Shown one piece after another: positions 1,908-32,951 of a DNA stretch of 34,246 nt. Below the pieces are notes generated by a model. The model was given only the letters and a program-made list of their open reading frames with translations, had not been told where the DNA came from and searched no databases. This stretch comes from a virus (lineage: Duplodnaviria > Heunggongvirae > Uroviricota > Caudoviricetes): IMG/VR virus record IMGVR_UViG_2529292882_000018, positions 1 through 34,246 of that record; one strand, given 5' to 3'. Within the stretch, counting starts at the first letter, position 1. Each line of letters opens with the position of its first letter. The position numbers and the translations under genes were made by a program.

Positions 1908-2426
1908 CTTAAATCCTCCTAAATCTGGATTAATGATTTCTTAAAAAAGAGCGTTAACCGCTCACTATTATTTATATGGGGATTGTATTTTATTTTTCAA
2001 CCCCTCACATTTATCTCTTATATATGTATTTATAACAGAGATATGTTAAAATGTTATTCAGATGTTATCAGACGTGTTAAATGTGTTAAACCGCAGCACG
2101 AATTGCTAAAGAGAAGAACACGAATTAACCAAATTGATGTTTATTCAATCAATTTAGAAAATTGCATAGCACTTTTTGCTAAAGCGGTGAGCATTAATTG
2201 AGCTATGAATTGTAAAGATTTGTTACAAGATTTTCTCTCAGATCCAAATCTTCACAAACATATAACAATTTAACACGATGATAACAATAGGAAGGAAAAT
2301 CGGTAAATTTTCACTTTCAATACAAATATTATACCACATTTTTTCTCGAATTGTCAAGTATAGCACCAAACCTACATAGTGTCAAGAAAGGACTTTCAAA
2401 CCTACACTAGCCCTACACTATGAAAA

Positions 2427-2612
2427 TTGCCCCTGAATTTTGCCCCTGAACCAAAATCCCCTAGATTTCACTATCCCATTTTTGCCCCTGAAACCTACTA
2501 TTTTTGCCCCTGAAATTCTGGGAAACAGTGATTTTGCCCCTCATTTTTGCCCCTGAAATGCCAATAATTGCCCCTGAAAATCTAATTTTTGCCCCTGAAA
2601 TTTGCCCCCGAA
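2427..2612. repeat. array of nine direct 11-bp repeats TTGCCCCTGAA (seven exact, two one-base variants)
   Basis: Copies start at 2427, 2440, 2482, 2504, 2534(variant), 2547, 2568, 2589, 2602(variant); spacing 13-42 bp; inverted variant copy at 2655-2665; same 11-mer forms the left arm of the terminator at 5125. Confidence 0.85.
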
Positions 2613-2813
2613 AAGGATTGGTAAGAAAAACTCTTTATAAAACATTGACTTAGTGAGGGGCAAAAACGGGGAATCGGGCGTGCATAGATATTATATGACA
2701 CATTCGCTACGCTCATGTGTAAAACCAAAAACAACAAATAACCAAAAAGATATTAGGAGGGCGTAGCCCGACTGCGCGAAGCGCTAACCAATTACTTCTA
2801 GTAACACTAATTT

Positions 2814-3036
2814 AAACTAGATGATACTAGATGGTCTTAGAAGGAATTAACTAGTTTGCTCGCTCGCTTCGCTCACTCTCAAACGTCTGCGACGCCACTG
2901 CGTGGCATCGAGAATCACTTCTGAAAGGATTTTCTTGAAAGGGATTTTAAACTAGTTACTAACTGATTCTAGAAAGATAGTAATAATCACTTTGAAGATA
3001 ATAGTAGTTAACTGGTTACTAGATGATTCTAGATCA
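2814..3036. repeat. three copies of a ~20-27 bp CTAG-rich element (core ACTAG-TGAT-CTAGA)
   Basis: Copies at about 2814-2844, 2949-2976 and 3009-3036; eight CTAG tetranucleotides within roughly 250 bp of non-coding DNA. Confidence 0.55.
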
Positions 3037-3293
3037 CTTTAATGATCATGAAAGGTATTGGTATCCCTTCGGGATTGCAACCTTCGGTTGCTAAATTGCT
3101 TCCTAATTATTATTTCTCCAAAAGAAAGATTCTTATATTCTAAAGATACTTCTTCGTTTTGATGATGATTTAATCAAAATCTATGAAGGAGGCGAAGCCG
3201 ACTGAATACCAATTCCTTTCAAATTAGACAAAAATTTCTCGTTATAAATAATAGTGAACTTACTTTGATTCACTTTTTTAGAGGATTTCCACT

Positions 3294-3746
3294 ATGATCA
3301 ATACTAAAACTCCTTTCATTCTTCTGGGTCTGAACCATGATGATAATCTGGCTATGATGCATGTTTTCGCTAATCGTGGTTATAACATCATTCGTCATTC
3401 CGAAGACTCCAATTTCTCAACTGCTTTCTATGCTCTTAAACGTAATGGTCGCCCTACGGTGATCGTAGACTGCTTTACTGATGAAGGTCGTGAACAATAC
3501 AACAACATTCCGGCAATTATTGTTCGTGATGACCTGCCGTTTGATGTTCGTGAATATGACGTTGATTTAGGCTCTTACTATGGGATCGCCGATCTTGACC
3601 AGATTATGGCTGATTACGGTAAACAACCCGCTCAGGAAGCCCCAGAACACGATGAACAAGACGAAGATGACGACGACTACACACCAATCTGTTTCTCTTC
3701 TCACGGTGGCTTCTACGGTTACGATGAAGGCTTAGATATGCTGTAA
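3294..3746 (+). CDS. acidic hypothetical protein
   Basis: 150-aa ORF; strongly acidic with C-terminal EHDEQDEDDDDY run; leader shares a 22-bp element with the gene at 30200. Confidence 0.6.
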   Translation: MINTKTPFILLGLNHDDNLAMMHVFANRGYNIIRHSEDSNFSTAFYALKRNGRPTVIVDCFTDEGREQYNNIPAIIVRDDLPFDVREYDVDLGSYYGIADLDQIMADYGKQPAQEAPEHDEQDEDDDDYTPICFSSHGGFYGYDEGLDML

Positions 3747-3781
3747 TTTAGGTCAACCCTTTGGCGTCTTGTCAAGGGGTA

Positions 3782-3810
3782 TTGACAAAAATTTCTGACT
3801 TTTTTATGAT
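3782..3810 (+). promoter_or_regulatory. sigma70-like promoter with overlapping inverted repeat
   Basis: TTGACA (3782-3787), 17-bp spacer, TATGAT (3805-3810); inverted repeat TTGTCAA-6bp-TTGACAA at 3769-3788; further TTGACA/TTGACC boxes downstream. Confidence 0.45.
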
Positions 3811-3866
3811 TATCGCACTTGACAACTTTGAACCTATTTGACCTAGATTTGTAAAGAGGATGTAAC

Positions 3867-4199
3867 ATGAAAGAATTTACCATCACTAAATCCCTGTATG
3901 ACTGGACTGTTAAAATCTCCGGCAAAACCGTTTCTGTAACCCCTAGCCATGTAGAAAATGATTGGGGCGTATCCCGTGAAACTATCTCCCGTAGTATGCA
4001 TGTTCCGTTTGATCTGATGACCTTAACTGGTATTCATGCAATGCTGGAAGTTCGCGAACAATTCGAAGCTGGTAATCACAATGCGACTCCAGTTAGCAAT
4101 CACCTTCTTACTAATGAAGAACGTGAAATCATCGAAAACTGGCGTTATGAATATGCGATTCCTTATTATGAAGAAGATCAGGTAGAAATCGATTGGTAA
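3867..4199 (+). CDS. hypothetical protein
   Basis: 110-aa ORF with AAGAGGA RBS, downstream of the predicted promoter. Confidence 0.6.
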   Translation: MKEFTITKSLYDWTVKISGKTVSVTPSHVENDWGVSRETISRSMHVPFDLMTLTGIHAMLEVREQFEAGNHNATPVSNHLLTNEEREIIENWRYEYAIPYYEEDQVEIDW

Positions 4200-4288
4200 T
4201 AAATTTCTATTATAAATAAAATTGTTCCGGCGGTGATGCCGGAACTAGGAGGACCAAATCATTAAACCGTTTAAGGGGAATTAATACT

Positions 4289-5116
4289 ATGAATACTGTT
4301 ACCGTTATGAATACTGCTAAAACTGCTTCCGTGTCTCTGGTTGTTGATAACACCAAACCGCTGACCATGTCTTCTCGTCAGATCGCTGAATTTACCGGAA
4401 AAGAACATAAGCATGTTAAACGTGATATTAAAACTATGCTTACTTCTCTTGAATTAGATGAGTCCAAATTTGGACGCATCTTTTTTGACCAATATGGACG
4501 TGAACAAACCGAATATCACCTTGACGAAGAACTTACGCTGACTCTTGTTACTGGTTACGATGTTAAGCGTCGAATGGTTGTTATTCAGGAATGGAAGCGA
4601 CTGAAAGAAGAAAATGAAAAACTGCGTTCTCAGCAAATCAACCCTTACGCAAACATGACTAAGCTCGACTGGATTCGTGAGGCAATGGAATTGGAAGCCG
4701 CAAACGAACAACTGATTCAAGAAAAGAAACAACTGGTTGAATTGCATGTTCGTAAAGCTATCGACACACACAGTCTTAGCCGCTTATTAGGCGAAAAACG
4801 AGGCTCTACGACGGTACAAATGATTCTGAAAGGTTTATGTGCTGCTGGTGTTCTTGAGCGTCGTCTGGATGCTTCTGGTAAGCCTAAAGGCTATGATCTG
4901 CTTCCTCCTGGCTATATGTTCGCTCGTATGTCGGCACACGGTCAGATCGAGTTCACTGCTGATGCTATCCCGCATCTCGTAAAACTCGGATTGCTTGAAG
5001 AAGAAAAGGCCGCAACTTTGAAATTGCCACAGCCGAACAACTCACGAGCAATCATTAATAACACTGCTTTGCTGATTCGTCAGAATGCTGGCTCTCTGGA
5101 AGTCTTCGGACTGTAA
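4289..5116 (+). CDS. Rha-family phage regulatory protein (antirepressor-like)
   Basis: 275-aa ORF; N-terminal segment MSSRQIAEFTGKEHKHVKRDIKTML matches the Rha N-terminal signature as I recall it; central coiled-coil. Confidence 0.65.
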   Translation: MNTVTVMNTAKTASVSLVVDNTKPLTMSSRQIAEFTGKEHKHVKRDIKTMLTSLELDESKFGRIFFDQYGREQTEYHLDEELTLTLVTGYDVKRRMVVIQEWKRLKEENEKLRSQQINPYANMTKLDWIREAMELEAANEQLIQEKKQLVELHVRKAIDTHSLSRLLGEKRGSTTVQMILKGLCAAGVLERRLDASGKPKGYDLLPPGYMFARMSAHGQIEFTADAIPHLVKLGLLEEEKAATLKLPQPNNSRAIINNTALLIRQNAGSLEVFGL

Positions 5117-5124
5117 TAATTTTT

Positions 5125-5149
5125 GCCCCTGAATTTCAGGGGCTTTTTT
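5125..5149 (+). terminator. intrinsic terminator
   Basis: GCCCCTGAA / TTCAGGGGC inverted repeat followed by TTTTTT directly after the Rha-like gene. Confidence 0.8.
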
Positions 5150-5280: not shown

Positions 5281-5514
5281 TCAAAAACCTGTTGCTTCTA
5301 CGATCTGACCATCACCGATCTGAACATAGAATTTAATGTCTAACTTCTTCATATTCTTATAGAATTGGGCGATTGAGATCCCATGTTCACTAAGAATCTG
5401 TTCTTTCGCTTCCTTACCACGATCCGCTGTATAGTAAGCGTAGGCAATATCAGCCATCTGTTCAGCGTTAAAACGGGCAGGACGACCGCGAGTAGCTTTA
5501 GTAGTCATAGTCAT
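5281..5514 (-). CDS. small putative HTH DNA-binding protein (paralog of 1725-1907)
   Basis: Track ORF 5281-5541 begins at GTG; an ATG at 5514 with GGAGA RBS gives MTMTTKATRGRPARF...; C-terminal FYKNMKKLDIKF motif shared with the 60-aa protein. Confidence 0.5.
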   Translation of the reverse strand: MTMTTKATRGRPARFNAEQMADIAYAYYTADRGKEAKEQILSEHGISIAQFYKNMKKLDIKFYVQIGDGQIVEATGF

Positions 5515-5543
5515 TTTCTCCAAATTAAAGTGAATGTTCACCT

Positions 5544-6146
5544 TTATTTAGAGGACTTACATTTTATCGGAAAAAGTTCTCCATCGTCAATACTCATAAA
5601 GAACTCTGCCTTAATCCCGTACTTCTTCAACCGTGAATAGTATGTACCCCGACTTATATCAACCTTGCGAAGCACTTCAAAGAACCCTTTAGGATCGTTG
5701 TAATAGTGGCTATAACGCACGTTAGCGAGTTCAACGAATAGTTCCCTTGTATCACCATAGCCTTTCTTGAAAGCCTCGTTACGATAGCGTGTAATTGCGT
5801 GATTCAATCTCTTCTGTTTCAACACTTCTCGGATCGGCTTCCACTGCAACCGATAGATAGGACCGTCATCCACTCGATAATAACGCTTGATATCAAAATC
5901 AAACCAATCTCGGACTCTCCGAAACTCTGTATGTGATGTTCTATGCTTCTTAAAGAAGTTGTGAACGTCTGTATAACCATTATCGCGGTAAAACTCTATT
6001 AAAATCTCTTTCGCTTCCTCACGACTAAAGCCAGATGTTGTGTAGTCGGTTTTTAAATGCTTATGCTTAACTGGTAAACGATATTCATGATCGGTACAAG
6101 ACAAGGCTAATTCTAATTCATCTCTTTGTTGCTGATTAATTAGCAT
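5544..6146 (-). CDS. hypothetical basic protein with C-terminal HTH-like motif
   Basis: 200-aa ORF with AAGGGGGG RBS; C-terminal [16 protein letters not shown] resembles the HTH of the two small paralogs; arginine/lysine rich. Confidence 0.5.
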
Positions 6147-31271: not shown

Positions 31272-32951
31272 TTAAATTCCAAATTCCTGTAATGGACCTG
31301 GTATTTCCTCTTCTGGTTTCCAGTTCTTATCTGTCAGCATGTCTAAACATGGATGCAAAACAAGCCCGTTACTTTCCAGAATCTGTCTATCATTGATAGT
31401 TTTCAAATCAATGAATATCCGGCCTTTCCTCGTTCCTCTTGAATTTTCTATTACAACTCTCTGGGTCTTTCCATCGATGTATTCCAGTACAAACAAGTTT
31501 TTGTTTCTGTCAATCCTGCTACACCCGATCCGCTTTAGAGCTTGCTTAATCTTAAACCGGACCTTTAGTCGTTCCTCGTTATAAACATCTTCTAAATCAA
31601 ATTCTGCGAGCTTCTCCCAGCCTTGAGAGTCCACAGAATACATTTCCTCTTCTGCCATCTTGATCTGATTGTAGAGTGTTTCACGCTCGCTATTGAGGGT
31701 AGTAATCTGATCGGCTAGCTCCTTCGTTGCTCCTGTCATAGCAGAAAGGGCAATCAGGTTATCAATCTTGCGTGATATCTCATCAACCTGTACTTTCAAA
31801 GCCGGAACCGGATTAGCCTTATCCTCAGCAATCCAGATTTTATCAGCCAGCAATTGCAATACAGCTTTCTCTAATTGATCCCCTCGAAAACTCCAGTTTG
31901 GATGCTCGCAATCAAGTCTACGTGAACGGGTCGCATCACATGTATAACGATACTGGTCAGAACGTTTGTTTGTTCCCTTCACTTTAACCATAGCGCAACC
32001 GCAATGATCACATTTCAATAGGCCAATGCCACTAAGCAGGGGGATCGGTTTAGCTTCTTCCTTGTCTCCAAAGTTCCATGCTCTAGCACCAATATTTTTC
32101 TTAAGGTGATAGAACGTAGCATCATCAATAACACGAGGGTAATAATCCTTTAACTCATAGTTAACGCCATCTACAGAGACTTCCTTGATACCAATCAAAG
32201 CGCGGGTATGGAACAACCTTTCAACCATTGCCCGTGACCATTTTGAATGCTTCTTATTACTAACCGCTGGTGGCGGTGTATATGTCTCGTTAAGGTGATC
32301 CAGTATTTCGGCGGTTGAACGTCCATTCTTCCGTAATTCCACAATCTCCTGAACAACAGGGAAGTACACCGGATGAGGCAGCACATAACCGGAAGTGGTA
32401 TCAGTCCACCACATATTCTTTCCAACTTCCTCGATAGCCACTGCCGGATTTTGTGGATTTTCTTGATGAGCTTTAATCTTAATCAATGCGCTTGAGTTAG
32501 TACGATTGCGCTTAGTCTGGCTTTCCTCATTACCACGGATGAATAAAAGGATGGAGAACATCAGGTCCATCGGGTTAGCGGTAACAGTATCCAGCGAGTA
32601 GATCTTGTTATCCATGCCAGTAACAATGGTTATTCCCCTACGGATGATTGAAAGGAATAACTCCTGCGCACTGACAATATCGGCACGGGATAAACGGTCC
32701 AAGTTTTCGATGAATAGCCAGCTACCAACAGGAACGGATCTACCTATTGCATCAAGGAAACGAGATAGCGCCCCTGTTTTGGAGTTAGCACCTTTAAACG
32801 CAGATACACCCAGATCCTGATAATCATTTACCAGTTCAAGGTCATACTTTGCCGCAATCTCTCTCGCCATCCTGATTTGTCGTTCATAACTCGAACCATC
32901 ATTCTGACGCATAGACGAGAAGCGAATATACGAATATAGTTTAGTTTTCAT
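31272..32951 (-). CDS. large serine recombinase
   Basis: 559 aa; N-terminal YIRFSSMRQ serine-recombinase catalytic motif and ENLDRLSR block; CDHCGC...C...C zinc-ribbon; C-terminal coiled-coil. Confidence 0.85.
   Translation of the reverse strand: MKTKLYSYIRFSSMRQNDGSSYERQIRMAREIAAKYDLELVNDYQDLGVSAFKGANSKTGALSRFLDAIGRSVPVGSWLFIENLDRLSRADIVSAQELFLSIIRRGITIVTGMDNKIYSLDTVTANPMDLMFSILLFIRGNEESQTKRNRTNSSALIKIKAHQENPQNPAVAIEEVGKNMWWTDTTSGYVLPHPVYFPVVQEIVELRKNGRSTAEILDHLNETYTPPPAVSNKKHSKWSRAMVERLFHTRALIGIKEVSVDGVNYELKDYYPRVIDDATFYHLKKNIGARAWNFGDKEEAKPIPLLSGIGLLKCDHCGCAMVKVKGTNKRSDQYRYTCDATRSRRLDCEHPNWSFRGDQLEKAVLQLLADKIWIAEDKANPVPALKVQVDEISRKIDNLIALSAMTGATKELADQITTLNSERETLYNQIKMAEEEMYSVDSQGWEKLAEFDLEDVYNEERLKVRFKIKQALKRIGCSRIDRNKNLFVLEYIDGKTQRVVIENSRGTRKGRIFIDLKTINDRQILESNGLVLHPCLDMLTDKNWKPEEEIPGPLQEFGI

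Follow-up and report, generated by a model that had tools for sequence, protein, structure and literature searches.

A probable sigma-70 promoter flanked by conserved TTGAC boxes in an uncharacterised prophage of Escherichia coli and Salmonella

We analysed a 34,246-nt stretch of DNA (the window), which covers positions 1 to 34,246 of the IMG/VR virus record IMGVR_UViG_2529292882_000018 (Caudoviricetes) and is part of a prophage of E. coli. A gap of 120 nt between two genes without known family, p150 (3294-3746) and p110 (3867-4199), very probably contains a real, strong sigma-70 promoter of the bacterial type, judging from its sequence and its conservation. The promoter is surrounded by TTGAC boxes, and comparison with relatives indicates that the boxes outside the promoter itself are under purifying selection. 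We consider the chance somewhat better than even that this is a repressible promoter, with the flanking boxes as putative operator sites. Sigma-70 promoters flanked by protein-binding repeats are well known, and this one will not surprise a specialist. The anatomy is more elaborate and better supported than was described in an earlier, sequence-only reading of this DNA. The cassette of promoter and selected boxes offers a handle on the control of an uncharacterised prophage, as well as a compact case for the function of the Rha family, to which the product of a downstream gene belongs.

The probable promoter and its TTGAC boxes

The -35 hexamer TTGACA (3782-3787) and the -10 hexamer TATGAT (3805-3810), both located on the plus strand by a consensus scan, are 17 nt apart, as in the sequence-only reading, and match the sigma-70 consensus at 11 of 12 positions. 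All elements named in that reading are present at their places. From this geometry, we infer initiation of transcription at the A at position 3817, 7 nt past the -10. A Shine-Dalgarno sequence, AAGAGGA (3854-3860, plus strand), can be read 6 nt ahead of the ATG at 3867. Motif counts alone are not significant. The window contains three promoter matches of at least 11/12 against 1.06 expected, and 8% of shuffles also reach three; all three matches sit in gene-free DNA and face a gene. It is the comparison with relatives that reaches significance.

Relatives were gathered by protein anchors independent of the boxes: the p110 protein, and the Rha C-terminal domain in IMG/VR and metagenomes. The E. 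coli-lineage comparison comprises 39 distinct intergenic sequences. All 39 share the same -10, the -35 departs from TTGACA in one real variant, TTGGCA, and the promoter spacer measures 16 nt in 4/39. Computation alone thus upholds the near-consensus promoter of the sequence-only reading, as the E. coli relatives retain the hexamers at a distance of 16-17 nt and the spacer sequence drifts. The site has what is expected of a sigma-70 promoter: hexamers near TTGACA and TATAAT at 17 nt ±1, which are more conserved than the spacer between them.

Five TTGAC boxes can be recognised around the promoter. Box A, AGGTCAA (3750..3756; TTGACCT on the minus strand), and box B, TTGTCAA (3769..3775, minus strand), form the outer and inner boxes of a left unit. 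Box C, TTGACAA (3782..3788, plus strand), is the -35 hexamer plus one A. Box D, TTGACAA (3819..3825, plus strand), lies at about +3 to +9 and is the inner box of a right unit, with box E, TTGACCT (3838..3844, plus strand), as the outer box exactly 12 nt past it. The additional TTGACA and TTGACC boxes that had been noted downstream of the promoter are the ones found at 3819 and 3838. The centre-to-centre distance is 19 bp both for A-B and for D-E, and the pairs A/E and B/D have a common dyad centre at 3797, halfway along the promoter spacer.

The exact 26-bp unit TTGACAA-N12-TTGACCT, with 14 specified bases, occurs in the window only at 3750-3775 (minus strand) and 3819-3844 (plus strand). The two units are inverted, 43 bp apart, and enclose the -35, the -10 and the predicted start; relative to position 3817, they extend from about -67 to -42 and from about +3 to +28. 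Five TTGAC boxes in 100 nt is the window maximum and is matched by 1/1000 shuffles (P = 0.001), and two exact TTGAC-N14-TTGAC units have P = 0.003 by shuffling. TTGACAA as such is not enriched in the window (7 observed, 8 expected). In the E. coli and Salmonella copies, no conserved -10 accompanies box A, B, D or E, so these boxes are not promoters themselves.

The hexamers and boxes together vary in 4/41 columns, against 42/66 elsewhere in the gap (Fisher p = 2e-8). For boxes A, B, D and E alone, 2/28 columns vary, both of them terminal, against the same 42/66 (Fisher p = 2e-7). Boxes A and E show no variation in the 39 sequences. In box B, the outermost T alone varies, in 2/39, and TGTCAA is constant throughout the E. 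coli and Salmonella relatives. The 12-nt linkers of the units differ in sequence among relatives and always have the same length, and the metagenome copies show the same pattern of boxes and linkers. The intergenic core is 88-98% identical where the flanking genes are only 68-87% identical. Because invariant boxes alternating so finely with variable linkers could not result from recombination tracts alone, the boxes must be under selection.

The inverted repeat TTGTCAA-GGGGTA-TTGACAA, with the -35 in its right arm, is exact at 3769-3788 and was found by pattern search at this site alone; with up to two mismatches, the pattern appears in 27% of shuffles. The spacer between B and C is 7 nt in 5/39 E. 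coli variants, through two different insertions, and 6 nt in most E. coli copies. There is no compensation between the lengths of this spacer and the promoter spacer. Since the inverted-repeat spacer can be 6 or 7 nt, a rigid dimer operator on the TTGTCAA/TTGACAA dyad is unlikely on sequence grounds. The operator-like inverted repeat of the sequence-only reading therefore survives only in part. Selected boxes outside the promoter do exist, but the dyad spacer varies, and the left arm belongs to the larger A,B/D,E mirror and overlaps a hairpin of the upstream gene.

Relatives in Salmonella enterica keep box B and the following GGGG, the -35, and box D just past the start. In most of them, the -10 is replaced by an extended -10, TGnTAnnAT, at the same distance (spacer 17-18 nt), and the B-to-C spacer is 7 nt in most copies. 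Box A is degenerate in some (AGATCAA, AGATCAC) or missing (L098). Two Salmonella relatives (L101 and L133) have box E at D+19, as in E. coli, and most have AGGTCAA 19 nt past box D instead, overlapping the ribosome-binding site. These differences indicate that the symmetric A,B/D,E layout is lineage-specific and that B, C and D constitute the constant core. Universal among the box-bearing relatives in E. coli and Salmonella are box B (TGTCAA plus GGGG), the -35, a -10 and box D. Within IMG/VR, the B-C-D pattern is confined to this prophage family.

Still more distant relatives were reached via the neighbouring p200m protein. The rha-less L141 and L142 have no boxes and carry a promoter at the same spot, TTGACA-17-TAGTAT with TG, ahead of a homologue of a 51-aa open reading frame (ORF). 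A Proteus prophage is without the small ORF, rha and the promoter, and keeps a hairpin right after its p150 homologue.

Possible regulation of the promoter

In the arrangement that we favour, a strong sigma-70 promoter with a start near 3817 would drive a small, replaceable ORF and a Rha-family gene up to a terminator. The non-promoter boxes flank the core promoter in all box-bearing relatives, with B at about -45 and D at about +6. In this lineage, A and E join them to give the two inverted 26-bp TTGACAA-N12-TTGACCT units. Binding of a sequence-specific protein is the likeliest function of the boxes, and occupancy flanking and just downstream of the RNA polymerase site would shut the promoter off, either in the lysogen or soon after infection. 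The anatomy, the purifying selection on hexamers and boxes, the structure of the operon and the occurrence of boxes together with rha are observed; protein binding, repression and the identity of a binder we infer. The terms 'repressible' and 'early', applied to the promoter in the sequence-only reading, are plausible.

Several observations weigh against repression through these boxes. Every nearby candidate binder (the Rha N-terminus, the product of the first ORF, p60, p150 and p200m) is more variable than the boxes, and the putative recognition helix of p60 varies. The B-to-C spacer of 6 or 7 nt and a B-to-D distance that differs by ±1 base among relatives mean that there is no fixed helical phase between the two sides. 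Boxes A and E are not universal. The box cluster occurs only once in the prophage, which is not how the operators of a global phage repressor are arranged, and the GGGG and part of box B could be kept as the hairpin of the upstream gene. Finally, the natural variant L079 has deleted the whole cassette, which is thus dispensable for carriage. The deletion in L079 (2238-2492) joins the N-terminal part of the p150 homologue, in frame, to the 59-aa first-slot ORF, so that rha would there depend on the upstream promoter.

Among possible binders, the Rha protein encoded by the operon itself is the strongest single candidate, acting by negative autoregulation. This would be a specific form of the repressible promoter, similar to the control exerted by Aca proteins: Rha would bind the TTGAC boxes, probably by its conserved C-terminal winged-helix-like domain, and the promoter would be turned off after a burst of the variable first gene. 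We put this forward tentatively, as a possibility rather than an expectation. The layout fits, with a strong promoter, a hypervariable small first gene, a conserved gene for a DNA-binding protein and a terminator. Aca proteins repress acr promoters via inverted repeats (PMC6765145, PMC9410906). The boxes are present in every rha-bearing relative and absent in the rha-less L141 and L142, although this correlation amounts to a single phylogenetic contrast. Conversely, a Rha-family gene is found in every box-bearing relative, always as the second gene.

The rha gene (4289..5116, plus strand) encodes 275 aa and matches Phage_pRha in Pfam (2.7e-12), 'anti-repressor Ant' in PHROG (1e-18) and phage_pRha in NCBIfam. 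In an AlphaFold2 model (mean predicted local distance difference test score, pLDDT, of 76), the protein would have a winged helix at its N-terminus and a second, winged-helix-like domain, the two joined by a long coiled coil, which would agree with a DNA-binding role. Of the C-terminal half, two or three forms exist, and many of its residues are invariant in E. coli and Salmonella alike. The Phage_pRha winged helix at the N-terminus, on the other hand, is mosaic, with at least 6 forms, in contrast to the invariant boxes, and the helix before the wing of the C-terminal domain also differs between forms. A Foldseek search of the model against the PDB gave nothing significant (best E = 0.2), the weak top matches being DNA binders of the MerR, MarR and RacA types. 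A 2026 survey of Aca families makes no mention of Rha.

The first gene behind the cassette, p110 (3867..4199, plus strand; 110 aa, identified from the ORF list and relatives), belongs to no known family. The slot that it occupies (3867-4199, compared with L026, L043, L098, L101, L133 and L141) is filled by three unrelated families of small proteins, and the cassette and downstream rha stay in place. The first family comprises p110 and its Salmonella homologue. The second consists of proteins of 48-68 aa with the motif 'VDFxERQRR', and the third of proteins of 50-59 aa with the motif 'PSPLQMAL'. None of the first-slot ORFs matched a family in PHROG or Pfam. Such an exchange is typical of accessory or anti-defence slots. 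The stretch 'GVSRETISRSM' of p110 has the look of a helix-turn-helix (HTH), but it is not conserved and was dismissed.

The operon is closed by an intrinsic terminator (5125..5143, plus strand), found by a terminator scan as GCCCCTGAATTTCAGGGGC followed by a T-run and also present in L079. The terminator stem after rha (5119-5143; GCCCCTGAA / TTCAGGGGC) reuses an iteron sequence, TTTTGCCCCTGAA, from 2.5 kb upstream.

A more specific version of autoregulation by Rha seems improbable as it stands, namely that the cassette is the control region of a first-gene slot for anti-defence or host-takeover proteins, in the manner of acr-aca operons, and that Rha shuts it off via its second winged helix. 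The promoter would fire on entry or induction and express whichever of at least three unrelated small proteins occupies the slot. If this holds, a Rha-family protein, representing a very common and poorly understood type of phage 'regulator', would obtain a concrete role and a DNA target. The small first-slot ORFs would in turn become candidate inhibitors of host systems.

Alternatively, the binder could be encoded away from the cassette and conserved throughout the hosts or relatives, being either a host transcription factor that E. coli and Salmonella share or a prophage repressor such as p200m. We judge this unlikely, though worth keeping in view. It is suggested by the boxes being invariant while all neighbouring phage proteins are mosaic, a pattern that a host factor or a prophage protein encoded elsewhere would explain. 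p200m has two HTH-like modules, the second of which is fairly conserved across E. coli and Salmonella, and tandem modules would suit a bipartite direct repeat. However, its forms do not track the two leader types, and p200m as the binder is only a guess. As for other prophage repressors, no repressor-like family was detected anywhere in the prophage. Among host factors, no known E. coli consensus fits, the comparison covering TyrR, LexA, CRP, FNR, RutR, CusR, PhoB and IHF.

It is also improbable, in our view, that the promoter is constitutive or unregulated. In that case, box B and the GGGG would be kept as a hairpin, and boxes D and E as leader or translation-initiation context or as additional -35-like contacts for RNA polymerase. 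The hairpin, CCCTTTG-N9-CAAGGGG (3757..3779, plus strand), is located just past the p150 stop and overlaps box B and the GGGG of the spacer. It is maintained, being fully paired in 46/55 distinct sequences. One double change, from C-G to A-T at the pair 3758:3778, is compensated, and both single-change intermediates exist. The presence of a hairpin at the matching place in the Proteus prophage, without the promoter, suggests that the structure is part of the upstream gene's 3' end, probably as the 3' hairpin of p150. The terminator scan did not flag it, as it has no T-run, and the 8 nt past its stem read TATTGACA. The varying spacer length of the inverted repeat and the single box cluster in the prophage would also be compatible with an unregulated promoter.

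Nevertheless, the hairpin accounts for the conserved GGGG and not for the TTGT of box B, which is located in the loop and does not vary, unlike the other loop positions. Boxes D and E are likewise constant, and the 12 nt between them change in sequence, never in length. The leader of 50 nt has no significant RNA structure (z = +1.0 against shuffles). The identical, mirrored units A/B and D/E are not predicted by a hairpin and leader context.

We rejected two roles at the level of nucleic acid structure. For boxes D and E in the RNA, the leader folds no better than shuffles and had no match in Rfam. Pairing of A/B with D/E, as RNA or as a cruciform, gives a DNA fold of z = -1.9 only. As the boxes are invariant, no covariation is available for such pairing, and the equal 12-nt linkers fit protein sites better.

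The last alternative, that the promoter match is a chance consensus hit unused in vivo, is very improbable: chance alone would give about one match of at least 11/12 in a window this long, but this one is intergenic, in the right orientation and 50 nt ahead of an ORF with a Shine-Dalgarno sequence, its hexamers are invariant while the spacer drifts, Salmonella swaps in an extended -10 at the same distance, and L141 has a different promoter at the matching position.

The prophage and the surroundings of the cassette

The window is part of a ~38-kb prophage inserted in ycdX, and ycdX is split in strain ETEC1703 (NZ_CP122923). Chromosomal matches to the window were found in 58/5426 complete E. 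coli genomes (about 1%), and the promoter cassette in 54/5426, with 100% identity in E. coli L3Cip3 (NZ_CP062211). The prophage family is also present in Salmonella enterica, as syntenic prophages reached via Rha homologues. No near match to the window was found among deposited phages or in the plasmid collection. The nearest isolated phages have only 28-45% identity, in the capsid protein. The GTDB representative genomes contained no relative, a PDB search by sequence found nothing, and the literature yielded nothing on the motif or on prophages in ycdX.

The genes of the prophage include a lambda-type large terminase, a portal, a fused protease/major capsid protein, siphovirus tail genes, an endolysin and a large serine recombinase (31272-32951, minus strand). 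No recognisable repressor or replication gene was detected in the prophage, including members of HTH_3, S24 or other repressor families. As a whole, the element is a temperate prophage resembling siphoviruses, with E. coli and Salmonella as hosts, and its lineage is uncharacterised. The prophage of Proteus columbae adjoins a gene for a PHP-domain protein, and ycdX in E. coli is a PHP-domain phosphatase gene. Insertion at PHP-domain genes in both species suggests an attachment site that is conserved across genera, as judged from the ends of L001, L002 and L140.

The upstream gene p150 (3294..3746, plus strand) was taken from the ORF list, and its translation of 150 aa has an acidic C-terminus. 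It had no match in Pfam, PHROG or NCBIfam. All relatives have a homologue, with 54-100% identity, and the p150 stop codon is 3 nt ahead of box A.

The operon behind the cassette sits between an origin-like gene-free region and the packaging genes. The gene-free region (1908-3293) constitutes 1.4 kb without a gene call and is retained by all relatives, an unusual situation for a phage. Its contents include about 10 iteron-like copies of TTTTGCCCCTGAAA (2423-2613) and an inverted copy at 2656-2671, followed by direct repeats of the ACTAGATGATTCTAGA type (2816-3034), two UUCG-loop hairpins at ~3058-3090 and mini-hairpins of the GCGAAGC type. No family was found for the region in Rfam. From its repeats, it looks like a replication origin and/or a locus for a non-coding RNA. 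A stretch of 73 nt within it (3107-3179) has a counterpart of ~81% identity in Krischvirus phages (RB49, JSE, Phi1 and others), in intergenic DNA without annotation (1201-1273 of L146, from RB49). The shared core, TTCTAAAGAT..TTCTTCGTTTTGATnATnATTTAATCAAA, has a 7-nt inverted repeat, TTTTGAT/ATCAAAA.

Three minus-strand genes in the vicinity share an HTH-like module of ~50 aa, RPxxFTxE...GIxxSTFxKLLKKYxIK, as found by BLASTP (pairwise E 3e-6 and 5e-4). These are p60 (1725-1907; 60 aa), p86m (5281-5541; 86 aa) and p200m (5544-6146; 200 aa), the last with two copies of the module. None of them matched a known family, and they are candidates for regulators or packaging proteins of the lineage.

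Other promoter-like sequences are found nearby. Two tandem near-consensus promoters point leftward at 2328-2385 (minus strand), TTGACA-18-TATAAT (12/12, with TG) and TTGACA-17-TATACT (11/12). They precede the 60-aa gene (1725-1907) by ~420 nt, and the intervening leader is rich in TGTTA repeats. The promoter-like sites at 3225-3255, 3788-3812 and 4200-4227, ahead of p150, p110 and rha, have the motif AAATTTCT in common, which follows the -35 position; at all three sites, the -10 region is A/T-rich. The site ahead of p150 (TTCTCGTTATAAATAATAGTG) is conserved out to Proteus.

Comparison with known systems

A number of other known elements were considered for the cassette and rejected. Control by LexA in the SOS response is not indicated, as 3745-3866 contains no CTGT-N8-ACAG and the only stretch there with a CTG, the CTGAC in the promoter spacer, varies freely. 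TGTCAA-N6-TTGACA agrees at 10/12 positions with the TyrR box, TGTAAA-N6-TTTACA, but N6 becomes N7 in many relatives. Among the consensuses of CRP, FNR and IHF, the RutR half-sites, the CusR and PhoB boxes, sigma-54 and sigma-32, none fits in both sequence and arrangement. B and C formally match the TGT-N12-ACA of P2 Ogr-type activation, with the wrong position (-38 instead of -55), a variable N and an unrelated phage. As leftward (A/B) or second rightward (D/E) -35 elements, the boxes have no acceptable or conserved -10 at 16-19 nt in E. coli or Salmonella. For an invertible promoter switch, the 43 bp between the arms are too short, and all ~65 relatives show a single orientation. An attP of the serine integrase does not apply, since the real junctions are in ycdX, and a cos or terminase-binding site is not indicated because the terminase gene is 2.4 kb off, past a convergent gene pair.

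Antirepressor modules under LexA control are present in the Gifsy phages, in phage 186 (tum) and in N15 (antC). Their likeness to the cassette lies in a promoter dedicated to a gene of the antirepressor type that is to be silent in the lysogen.

The lambda promoters PL and PR are similar in being strong sigma-70 promoters of a temperate phage with repeated sites that overlap or flank the hexamers. They differ in that no CI- or Cro-like gene is adjacent or detectable here, in the single cluster as opposed to two operator sets, and in the half-site spacing, which is 6 or 7 nt here. Of the features of an operator for a dimeric repressor of the lambda, 434 or P22 c2 type, the cassette has a dyad overlapping the -35, TTGTCAA-N6-TTGACAA. 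A fixed half-site spacing, several operators and an adjacent repressor gene were not found.

The immI region of P22 contains the promoter Pant and the genes arc and ant, and the Arc and Mnt operators are compact 21-bp dyads that overlap the promoter. It resembles the present cassette in having a near-consensus promoter for a short operon with an antirepressor-like larger product, and operators at that one promoter only. The boxes described here differ from such dyads in lying at about -45 and +6. Neither the first-slot ORFs nor the neighbours yielded a ribbon-helix-helix gene, the first gene can be replaced by unrelated ORFs, and there is no divergent mnt-like gene, p150 being co-directional.

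In acr-aca operons, Aca proteins bind inverted repeats and repress the acr promoters (PMC6765145, PMC9410906, PMC8633003). The second gene of the present operon differs from a short HTH Aca in encoding a 275-aa Phage_pRha protein. The first-slot ORFs match no family and are not known to have anti-defence activity, and the boxes are single 7-mers in bipartite units, not compact palindromes. What the two have in common is a strong promoter, one small gene that is rapidly exchanged, a conserved gene for a DNA-binding protein and repeats around the promoter.

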